A DNA stretch of 64,000 nt from sequence record OQ845958.1; one strand, written 5' to 3'. Both the position numbers and the translations under genes were made by a program. Origin of the DNA: Escherichia phage pEC-M719-6WT.2. The notes beneath the pieces are model-generated. The model worked only from the letters and a program-made list of their open reading frames with translations. It was not told where the DNA came from and ran no database searches. The number at the start of each line of letters is the position of its first letter. The stretch's first letter is position 1. Below are positions 20,602 through 21,554 of this stretch, piece by piece.

Positions 20602-21027
20602 ATGAACTTCCTGACCCTGACTTCTGCATTCTCTGTTACCCGCATCACTAACAAAATGGTTGCCGACGAAGTATGTGAAATCTGCATTCGTGAAGATGCA
20701 CTTATTCATCTGACTTCAACCCAGATTGTTGCCATCGCTAAGTCCCTTAATTCTGAACTGAAGGTAAACACCAAACAGTCAAAAGAATCTATCATTGAAT
20801 TAATCCAAGCTGAAATGATTGAATTCCCAATTGAAGAAGTTAAAGAAGAAAAAATCCAGTCCAAATCTGGTAATGCTCGTGACATTTGCTTCCAGGCATT
20901 TGCAGAAATTGATATGGCAGATGGTGCAGCTCGCCGCGCCCTGATTGATGTTCTGGTTAACACCCATGATATCAAAAAGACTGTTGTTCAGTCATATGCT
21001 TCCAACTTCCGCAAAGCTCAAAAATAA
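20602..21027 (+). CDS. hypothetical protein, paralog of 21111..21554
   Basis: C-terminal block ...GAARRALIDVLV...VVQSYASNFRKAQK shared with next gene; own promoter/leader cassette. Confidence 0.6.
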   Translation: MNFLTLTSAFSVTRITNKMVADEVCEICIREDALIHLTSTQIVAIAKSLNSELKVNTKQSKESIIELIQAEMIEFPIEEVKEEKIQSKSGNARDICFQAFAEIDMADGAARRALIDVLVNTHDIKKTVVQSYASNFRKAQK

Positions 21028-21039
21028 TTGAGAAAAGTG

Positions 21040-21068
21040 TTTTACTTCCAGGTGGGATAGTGTATAAT
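21040..21068 (+). promoter_or_regulatory. early promoter (-35 TTTTAC, -10 TATAAT) in PeSL-like cassette
   Basis: 17-nt spacer; GGGATA/TATCCC inverted repeat around -10; conserved leader ATACTGAGTTACCAAATA. Confidence 0.55.
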
Positions 21069-21110
21069 TATCCCATACTGAGTTACCAAATAAACAAACG
21101 GGATAATAAA

Positions 21111-21554
21111 ATGAAAACTTCAAAACTGGTTAAGTACGTTAAGCTGGCATTAAACAACTCTTCTGAAGCTGAAGCACAATCCGCAGCACGTATGTTCTTC
21201 AAACGTCTGGCAGCTGAAGGTATTTCATTTAACCCGGCAGTATTTGGTATCACTCGTGGCGAAGCTGCTAAACTGGCAACTCTGGCAGGTAAAATTTTTA
21301 AAGGTCTGAATGATGGACAGGTTAAACCAGAAGTTAAACCTACTCCTAAAGCTGAACCAAAAGCTGAACGTAAGGCACCTAAACGCTCCGGTATGAGCAA
21401 CAAAGATTTATGCTATGATATGTTCAAAACTGTTAATATGTCTAATGGTGCTGCTCGCAGAGCTGTTATTGATATGATTGTGCGTGAGTTTGGATTCAAC
21501 AAAGCATCAGTTCAGTCTTATGCTTCCAACTTCCGCAAAGAATTTGAAATTTAA
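21111..21554 (+). CDS. hypothetical protein, paralog of 20602..21027
   Basis: C-terminal block ...GAARRAVIDMIV...SVQSYASNFRKEFEI; Lys/Pro-rich linker. Confidence 0.6.
   Translation: MKTSKLVKYVKLALNNSSEAEAQSAARMFFKRLAAEGISFNPAVFGITRGEAAKLATLAGKIFKGLNDGQVKPEVKPTPKAEPKAERKAPKRSGMSNKDLCYDMFKTVNMSNGAARRAVIDMIVREFGFNKASVQSYASNFRKEFEI

Follow-up and report, generated by a model that had tools for sequence, protein, structure and literature searches.

The sequence considered here is a stretch of 64,000 nucleotides from Escherichia phage pEC-M719-6WT.2 (record OQ845958.1), referred to below as the window, which at positions 20602-21554 carries two adjacent small genes on the + strand, gene 1 and gene 2, whose protein products have a C-terminal domain in common and different N-terminal halves. 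The source is a Gaprivervirus, a T4-like coliphage of the SP18/VR7 group, and about 34 Gaprivervirus genomes, e.g. SP18, VR7, VR20, VR25, VR26, and EAWsc9, match the 1.3-kb region at 94-99% identity. The locus is a hyperplastic region, 3' of two tRNA genes (tRNA-Met and tRNA-Arg, 18792-18944) and surrounded by small genes annotated without a function. A first-pass annotation had described the two genes as paralogs, each behind its own promoter cassette, and its coordinates are exact, running from the ATG at 20602 to the stop at 21554. Both ATG start codons are preceded by GGAG or GGGA, and homologues begin at the same Met. Longer, GTG-started open reading frames (ORFs) were rejected for both genes, since their starts would fall within the promoters and homologues use the ATGs.

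The features of the pair are listed below, with amino acid (aa) positions and isoelectric points (pI); A-type and B-type denote the architectures of gene 1 and gene 2, respectively.

20602..21027, + strand: gene 1, A-type, 141 aa, pI 5.7; phrog_9997, E 1.7e-70; 19 homologue clusters
Gene 1 aa 1-83: N-module; three short strands, then helix, extended loop, helix (H39-49, H61-74)
Gene 1 aa 84-89: linker
20869-21024, gene 1 aa ~90-141: C-domain; helices H92-100, H108-122, H126-140
21111..21554, + strand: gene 2, B-type, 147 aa, pI 10.0, net charge +13; phrog_18416, E 3.4e-92
Gene 2 aa 1-68: N-module; three helices, DUF2786-like
21315-21383, gene 2 aa 69-91: Lys/Pro linker; disordered, predicted local distance difference test (pLDDT) score <50
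21393-21551, gene 2 aa ~95-147: C-domain; helices H97-105, H113-127, H131-145

Domain layout and fold

When compared by BLASTP with composition-based statistics, the two proteins are identical at 32 of 73 positions (44%, E 2e-18), identity reaches 52% over the C-terminal 46 aa, and each protein finds the PHROG of the other in reciprocal searches (E about 1e-15 to 4e-16). The common block maps to a predicted three-helix domain (gene 1 aa 92-140; gene 2 aa 97-145) with pLDDT of about 84-91, and because this domain lies outside the Lys/Pro linker, the similarity is not a low-complexity effect, which is the point that the first-pass annotation had wanted settled by pairwise alignment. The N-terminal halves show no significant similarity to each other (tblastn E 1.0) and differ in predicted secondary structure, that of gene 1 consisting of beta strands and helices and that of gene 2 being all-helical. 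No copy of the C-terminal block beyond these two was found in the 64-kb window. The shared block, the unlike N-terminal halves and the Lys/Pro-rich linker of the second protein thus stand as they were first described. The AlphaFold2 model of gene 1 has a mean pLDDT of 83.6 and that of gene 2 a mean of 75, with about 87-91 for its C-domain.

The N-module of gene 1 is predicted to have a helix, extended loop, helix order, plus three beta strands. In B-type proteins a Lys/Pro or similar linker follows the N-module, a three-helix unit whose DUF2786-like motif reads LALNNSSEGEAxxAARMFF for the type as a whole and LALNNSSEAEAxxAARMFF in gene 2. Gene 2 itself gave no match to DUF2786 (Pfam PF10979), and all six relatives with a homologous N-module match it below the gathering score of 23.9 bits, at 10.9-16.3 bits (E 0.0096-0.46; profile positions 4-28). 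A likeness of this module to the RNA polymerase inhibitor Gp2 of T7 was discarded as not significant (E 0.5). The length of the Lys/Pro linker differs among strains, the EAWsc9 protein (4698-5165 of locus L001) having eight additional residues with two extra KAEP units; no tandem repeat was detected by Tandem Repeats Finder (TRF) in the linker DNA of the window copy. In the EAWsc9 record (PQ341120.1) the pair is labelled 'rho-N domain' and 'H15 domain', names best taken as weak automated hits. The same record calls a 71-aa paralog, described below, a thioredoxin and gives implausible names to small ORFs nearby, e.g. malate synthase, VirB3, and transposase.

At the level of the fold, the C-domain is modelled as a bundle of three helices, the second and third of which make up a helix-turn-helix (HTH) superposable on homeodomain-like HTH domains. 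The best structural matches with a low root-mean-square deviation (rmsd) were all DNA-bound HTH domains, and unrelated helical folds (Bcl-2, TOG, RecX) are interspersed in the match list. Invariant columns comprise Cys and Phe in helix 1, Arg (R27) in helix 2 and nearly all of helix 3 (V-Q-S-Y-x-S-N-x-R-K), including its polar and basic exposed face, and the domain is mildly basic, with a net charge of 0 to +5. In a profile search of the PDB, the ATBF1 homeodomain (2da3) was the sole homeodomain found (E 0.015), aligned over helix 2 to helix 3. The hhalign register sets VQSYASN[FY]RK against IKIWFQNRRMK, so that W48, N51, and R53 of the homeodomain are matched by the invariant Y, N, and R of the family. 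The sequence signature of the phage domain is Y-A-S-N-[FY]-R, not the WFxNxR of the Homeodomain family. Judged from these models and alignments, the C-domain probably has a homeodomain- or BEN-like, nucleic-acid-binding fold and is a member of neither sequence family. BEN domains are helical and about 90-100 aa long. The three PHROGs of the family (9997, 18416, and 17275) are all labelled 'unknown function', 16 domain sequences found no Pfam match at E<=10, and a Foldseek search of BFVD returned only the family's own uncharacterised members.

Homology to transcription activator-like (TAL) effectors was considered and rejected. The PDB profile value of E 2e-16 is an artefact of repeat summation (up to 23 repeats, each contributing -2.5 to +4.5 bits), hhalign against three TAL repeats gave a probability of 24.6%, and AlphaFold2 predicts a continuous helix through ASN-[FY]RK at the place where TAL repeats have the repeat-variable diresidue (RVD) loop. 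A local likeness to the TAL junction is seen in a B-type relative (LLCQRYGFGKATVQSYASN versus VLCQAHGLTPEQVVAIASN, 8/19 identities) and is noted as a curiosity; the TAL-like stretch corresponds to aa 113-135 of gene 1 (~20938-21006) and aa 118-140 of gene 2 (~21462-21530).

Distribution and pairing of the modules

A profile of the C-domain was searched against 1.84 billion representative proteins, giving 15 matches: 13 true members of 69-198 aa, one HEAT-repeat artefact and one repetitive 710-aa protein (P0036), whose repeat matches the last ~23 profile positions (32-54), covering helix 3 and the end of helix 2, and looks like a helix-turn-helix motif. IMG/VR contains 11 loci of the domain family. 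Across 185,579 GTDB species genomes there were no matches, and a prophage or bacterial origin was rejected on this search. The carriers found so far are lytic phages only, namely Gaprivervirus, Gualtarvirus, the Acinetobacter phages 133, ZZ1, and Henu6, Erwinia phage RF1, and myoviruses of about 45.6 kb, and T4-type genomes outside four small clades are devoid of the family. The C-domain occurs in at least three N-terminal contexts and also alone. B-type proteins have a pI of about 10 and a net charge of +11 to +13; A-type proteins have a pI of 5.5-6.6 in the enteric and 45-kb-phage members and of 8.7-9.0 in the Acinetobacter members. The remaining contexts are a divergent B-like form (P0026 and P0032) and domain-only proteins of 69-74 aa.

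The distribution of the domain in other phages, a check suggested by the first-pass annotation, revealed both architectures in Morganella, Erwinia and metagenomic phages, and in each case as neighbours. Besides Gaprivervirus, A-type and B-type genes lie close together in Morganella phage MP1 (in the order B, one ORFan, A), in Erwinia phage RF1 (A, HNH endonuclease, B), and in the 45.6-kb metagenomic myovirus contigs (A, 44-aa ORF, B). In the latter (L008, 10001-11266) the A/B island is opposite in strand to its neighbours and lies between the terminase operon and lysis/HNH genes. Acinetobacter phages 133 (L004, 2725-3162) and ZZ1 (L005, 2743-3162) carry a lone A-type gene on the strand opposite to every neighbour. 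These opposite-strand placements of the A/B island and of the lone A-type gene are moron-like.

A parallel pair was encountered when the B-type N-module was used as a query. Proteins of 119-134 aa in Yersinia phage vB_YenM_P744 and in contigs of about 42-46 kb (E 1e-20 to 1e-25) have the same N-module and linker as gene 2, followed by another C-terminal domain. Two genes upstream of this DUF2786-like gene the P744-like phages encode a 109-aa partner with a genuine Rho_N domain at its N-terminus (PF07498; 27.1 bits, cut-off 24.9, E 4e-6), and the Rho_N and DUF2786-like proteins have the alternative C-domain in common (48% over 31 aa, E 4e-8). In one metagenomic contig (L032) the two genes occupy 3201-3530 (Rho_N protein) and 4001-4387 (DUF2786-like protein). 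Homology of the alternative C-domain to that of the window was rejected (hhalign 0.4%), and a search of the PDB with it gave no match. The architecture of Rho_N plus alternative C-domain also occurs in Clostridium perfringens phages.

Helix-extended-helix/Rho_N-like and DUF2786-like N-modules therefore pair as neighbours across phage lineages, with a C-domain that is the same within a pair and differs between pairs. That the N-modules stay paired while the common C-module is swapped in both is what a common targeting domain predicts. No other finding argues as strongly as this pairing rule that both proteins of a pair are directed by the C-domain to one target or partner, where the N-modules act differently.

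The first-pass annotation had explained the pair by duplication with swapping of the N-terminal domain. The shuffling component of that proposal is directly supported, because the C-domain occurs in at least three N-terminal contexts and the gene-2-type N-module is found with another C-domain; the N-modules form conserved families of their own. The duplication, by contrast, is ancient and did not take place in this genome. Within genomes, the C-domains of A-type and B-type proteins are 43-57% identical, no closer than orthologues of other genera, and A-type C-domains group together (49-66% between the window protein and the enteric and 45-kb-phage A-types, 60-83% among the latter). Since A and B C-domains are as diverged within as between genomes, the duplication must be old, and on these sequence comparisons the pair appears to have been inherited or transferred as a unit.

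A third paralog of the domain lies outside the window. SP18_gp274 is a domain-only protein of 71 aa (SP18 164095-164310; L007 3501-3716) whose gene lies between gene 52 and motA, 3 nt upstream of the latter, in the vicinity of ndd, arn, and asiA. It is present in all Gaprivervirus genomes, behind the same cassette as the pair in the long leader variant of gene 1. A domain-only protein of 74 aa in Providencia phage PSTRCR_127 (L006, 2944-3168) has retained ~15 residues from the start of the A-type N-terminus (MNFNTLTTQF..) and was apparently derived from an A-type gene by internal deletion; the domain-only form thus seems to have at least two origins. Phage VR7 has a gene 2 orthologue (P0038, gp145) cut to 68 aa, with a frameshifted tail after the N-module and loss of the C-domain, so that the B-type protein is dispensable.

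Promoter cassettes

A common unit of about 85 nt precedes gene 1, gene 2, and the ORFan that follows, so that the proposal of a separate promoter cassette for each gene holds, the leader motif being found upstream of each. The unit consists of an A-tract, GT[G/T/A]TACA, N17, [C/T]ATAAT and a leader, its 3' part reading NAT[T/C]CCATACTGAGTTAC[C/A], then AAATAAA..GGAG/GGGA and (A)ATAAAATG. The predicted elements and neighbouring genes are as follows.

19903-20457: upstream DUF7338 gene (DUF7338 match E 1e-62)
20462..20485, + strand: predicted intrinsic terminator, AGCCCGC-ATT-GCGGGCT then TTTTTTAT; 7-bp stem with 6 GC pairs, T-run
20510..20601, + strand: cassette 1; A-tract, -35 (G)TGTACA 20522-20527, 17-nt spacer, -10 CATAAT 20545-20550
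20555-20568, + strand: leader of cassette 1, CCATACTGAGTTAC; Shine-Dalgarno GGAG 20591-20594
21030..21110, + strand: cassette 2; A-tract, -35 (G)TTTTAC(T) 21041-21046, -10 TATAAT 21063-21068
21073-21086, + strand: leader of cassette 2; Shine-Dalgarno GGGA 21100-21103; -10 in the loop of a GGGATA/TATCCC stem
21555..21637, + strand: cassette 3; -35 (G)TATACA 21568-21573, -10 CATAAT 21591-21596, leader 21601-21614, GGAG, then ATG
21562-21581, + strand: stem-loop of cassette 3, G5/C5, enclosing the -35
21638..21943, + strand: next ORFan, 101 aa, phrog_7474 (function-unknown class); third cassette unit, no kinship to the pair

The predicted terminator, a strong one by its sequence, would end the DUF7338 gene and isolate the transcription unit of gene 1. 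The form of the early promoter at the pair, GTNTACA-N17-YATAAT with an upstream A-tract, is close to the consensus of the early promoters of T4/PST promoter-early stem-loop (PeSL) cassettes, TTTACW-N17-TAYWAT (PMC4122927). A PeSL combines an early promoter and an AT-rich tract with a stable stem-loop, often of polyG/polyC, which is situated over or between the -35 and -10 and serves as attenuator or terminator, and its 3' end carries a Shine-Dalgarno and ATG; PeSLs recur before ORFans in hyperplastic regions, and homology patches of this type were shown to mediate ORFan shuffling (PMC2839356). Arbiol et al. speculated that cassette-specific DNA-binding factors might drive or regulate PeSL-mediated recombination (PMC2839356). 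In the window, five aligned copies repeat the arrangement of promoter, Shine-Dalgarno and ATG before ORFans, and from their sequence the cassettes are best regarded as predicted promoters of the already known PeSL type.

The 14-mer leader CCATACTGAGTTAC has five exact copies in the window, three of them before gene 1, gene 2, and the next gene. When up to two mismatches are allowed there are seven sites against 0.48 expected, a number reached in 0/100 shuffles. The leader variant of cassette 1 (..ACACACTGAATCA..CTTTGGAGAA) is near-identical to the leader before SP18_gp274. By regular-expression scan, the + strand of the window has about 15 T4-type early promoters, five of which have the leader CCATACTGAGTTAC, and a second leader class, CCCATCAACTACTGAGGAG, is present on at least four. 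Cassettes of this second class (..TATCCCATCAACTACTGAGGAG..) lie on the + strand at 15704, 16981, 17291, 26186, 28996, and 35685, and sites of the CCATACTGAGTTACC class at 20555, 21073, 21601, 40020, and 40609, which makes at least two families of promoter plus 5' untranslated region (5'-UTR) units. Two more small ORFs lie behind exact copies of the cassette, at 40057-40263 (68 aa, with a KPLPKRRRK basic tail) and 40641-41165 (174 aa). DNA folding of the cassettes gave weak stem-loops that do not differ from those of shuffled sequences (z -0.2 to -1.5); the stem over the -10 of cassette 2 is 8-9 bp long (z -1.5), and cassette 1 has no convincing stem.

Far from being specific to the pair, the cassette class is a general one, repeated 9-13 times in each Gaprivervirus genome. 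It also occurs in Gualtarvirus phages of Morganella and Providencia, and as a single copy in several T4-like phages without the gene family. In VR20 and VR25, gene 1 and gene 2 are separated by one more cassette and a 98-aa ORFan, placed precisely between them (in VR25, ORF 4254-4550 of L014 within the insert region 4217-4586; the same in VR20, L013), the leader motifs numbering four rather than three, and several genomes give a match about 370 bp longer. A cassette plus ORFan indel of this kind is what the PeSL model predicts. A role of CCATACTGAGTTAC as an operator of the family was rejected: the motif precedes all three paralogs as well as unrelated genes, it is present in T4-like phages without the family and absent before the Acinetobacter and RF1 members, and thus shows no specific association.

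Proposed function and comparison with known systems

We consider, with a probability of about one half, that the two genes are an ancient, co-inherited pair of early accessory genes, the common C-domain of which sends both proteins, as well as the domain-only paralog, to one target, most likely DNA. A DNA-binding role is suggested by the fold matches, the polar and basic conserved helix 3, the charge of the domain and the partner modules. The host RNA polymerase would transcribe each gene soon after infection from its own strong early cassette. The HTH-like domain would then take the acidic A-type protein, the basic, histone H1-tailed B-type protein and the bare-domain paralog to the same DNA sites, or to DNA generally. 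At the target, the N-modules would supply different activities, gene 1 contributing an acidic beta plus helix-extended-helix module and gene 2 a very basic, DUF2786-like helical module with a histone H1-like Lys/Pro tail. The setting is likely the early take-over of the host or phage chromosome and of transcription.

Several observations weigh against this proposal. Taken as a whole, the A-type protein is acidic; at the level of sequence, membership was found in no DNA-binding family; and the repeated leader motif, an obvious target candidate, also occurs in phages without the family. Searches of the C-domain and of the proteins against Pfam, NCBIfam and PADLOC gave nothing meaningful (PBP_like at E 0.05 and CT847 at E 0.005, both well below cut-offs), hhalign against seven homeodomains yielded a probability of 6.6%, and hmmscan detected no BEN domain. 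The AlphaFold2 models were built on shallow alignments of 6 and 20 sequences. The helix-extended-helix assignment of the gene 1 N-module finds no support in profile searches, Pfam giving no match and hhalign a probability of 0.2% against a true Rho_N protein. The genes are also accessory and dispensable, as seen in the B-type truncation of VR7, the Acinetobacter phages with an A-type gene only, and the many T4-like phages without the family. Searches of the literature found no functional data for these genes or for DUF2786.

The C-domain might instead be a protein-protein module that binds a conserved host protein (e.g. RNA polymerase or a nucleoid protein) or joins the A-type, B-type and domain-only proteins to one another, a tentative reading to which we give appreciable but clearly lesser weight. 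Matched C-domains in two independent types of pair suit dimerisation or a common partner equally well, the domain-only paralog sits directly upstream of motA and near asiA, in the transcription take-over region, and a helix 3 that hardly varies between phages infecting Escherichia, Morganella, Erwinia, and Acinetobacter would fit a highly conserved host target. The invariant exposed residues, however, are Q, S, S, N, R, and K, not hydrophobic and more typical of contact with nucleic acid, the low-rmsd structural matches point to DNA-bound HTH domains, and the partner modules are nucleic-acid-associated (a true Rho_N in the parallel pair, an H1-like Lys/Pro tail in gene 2). The nucleic acid could be RNA, with the C-domain binding phage tRNAs or the 5' leader of the cassettes and acting post-transcriptionally on early mRNAs or tRNA. 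In all T4-like carriers examined (the window, MP1, Acj133, ZZ1, and PSTRCR_127) the genes adjoin the phage tRNA cluster, the same transcribed leader CCAUACUGAGUUAC stands on all three paralogs and on many neighbours, and Rho_N-type modules belong to an RNA-binding protein. We nevertheless hold RNA binding to be unlikely: proximity to tRNA genes is explained by the synteny of one hyperplastic region, in the 45.6-kb myovirus loci, where no tRNA scan was made, protein-coding genes alone are listed, leader and family each occur without the other (the family so in Acj133, ZZ1, and RF1), and the fold matches are to DNA-bound domains.

The reading least in keeping with the data, and in our view highly improbable, is a recent tandem duplication at this locus by unequal recombination between the flanking cassettes, followed by replacement of the N-terminal half. 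The flanking cassettes are near-identical and of the homology-patch kind known for ORFan shuffling (PMC2839356), and sibling strains differ by a cassette plus ORFan placed between the two genes. The last 10 codons (VQSYASNFRK; 20995-21024 and 21522-21551) are identical at 29/30 nt and in 9/10 codons. Against this, both architectures neighbour each other in distant phages, the N-modules are conserved, separate families, and the C-domain DNA outside the last 10 codons is 50% identical, no nearer than orthologues of other genera; the distribution data already contradict a recent event. Between the paralogs of MP1, RF1, and the 45-kb phages the same 10-codon segment is just 73-77% identical, and its near-identity in the window may be due to gene conversion over a short tract, or to chance, at odds of roughly 1 in 100. 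A more specific version of DNA targeting would make the A-type, B-type and domain-only proteins a modular system, in which an exchangeable sequence-specific DNA-binding domain brings helix-extended-helix-type and DUF2786-like/H1-tailed effectors to the same sites, possibly the early cassettes, all three paralogs being situated behind the same cassette class. This is a decidedly doubtful proposition; if true, the proteins would be the cassette-specific factors of Arbiol et al., driving or regulating PeSL recombination or ending early transcription.

Most early genes of T4-like hyperplastic regions have no assigned function, and a rare unannotated domain here gains a testable structural assignment. 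The pairing rule is the more useful result, as it points to a design of targeting domain plus effector and offers a handle for finding the target; should the target be DNA, the proteins would form a new group of small phage factors for the take-over of chromatin or transcription. In addition, cassette-mediated ORFan shuffling can be seen at this locus in a clean natural case. What is new is the fold assignment, the delimiting of a very rare domain confined to phages, the finding of a third paralog next to motA, and the pairing rule for the N-modules. PeSL-type cassettes were known already, and dozens of genomes list the proteins as 'hypothetical'. The family is a new one within a known kind of small, helical and probably DNA-binding early phage protein. 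Overall this is a solid result at the level of annotation, of moderate interest and without surprise.

The cassettes resemble PeSLs (Arbiol et al., 2010, PMC2839356; Comeau et al., 2014, PMC4122927) in their AT-rich tract, sigma70/T4-type early promoter, and terminal Shine-Dalgarno and start codon, as well as in their repetition before consecutive ORFans and in the strain-specific indel of cassette plus ORFan. A stem-loop over the -35 or -10 may be a further likeness. The cassettes differ in that these possible stem-loops are weak and indistinguishable from those of shuffled sequence, and in that conservation runs through the 14-nt transcribed leader, a subclass of 5 of the ~15 early promoters.

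The C-domain resembles homeodomain-like and BEN domains (engrailed, 1du0; MATalpha2, 1k61; the BEN domain of Bsg25A, 4x0g) in its ~50 residues, in its three helices with a turn between helices 2 and 3, and in the basic residues before helix 1, and it resembles homeodomains in the aromatic, Asn and Arg residues of helix 3 at positions 48, 51, and 53 of the hhalign register. It shows no significant profile similarity to these domains, and it differs in having Y-A in place of W48-F49 and a shorter helix 3, in being C-terminal, with an end within 3-6 residues of the motif, and in having been found in lytic phages only.

The pair of the P744-like phages (L032 and L033) likewise consists of two small neighbouring genes with one C-domain in common, a DUF2786-like N-module homologous to that of gene 2, and a helix-extended-helix (Rho_N) module in the other member. 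Its C-domain has no detectable similarity to that of the window, and its Rho_N is a bona fide Pfam match, unlike the gene 1 N-module, which has three additional beta strands.

MotB and Ndd are small, non-essential T4 early proteins directed to DNA or the nucleoid, expressed from strong early promoters in hyperplastic regions. The present family differs from them in its absence from T4-type phages outside the four clades, and no sequence or fold relation to them was found, none having been sought. Its members are like MotB and Ndd in being small, non-essential proteins with predicted strong early promoters in hyperplastic regions, and one paralog of the family is located in the ndd-motA-asiA region itself.

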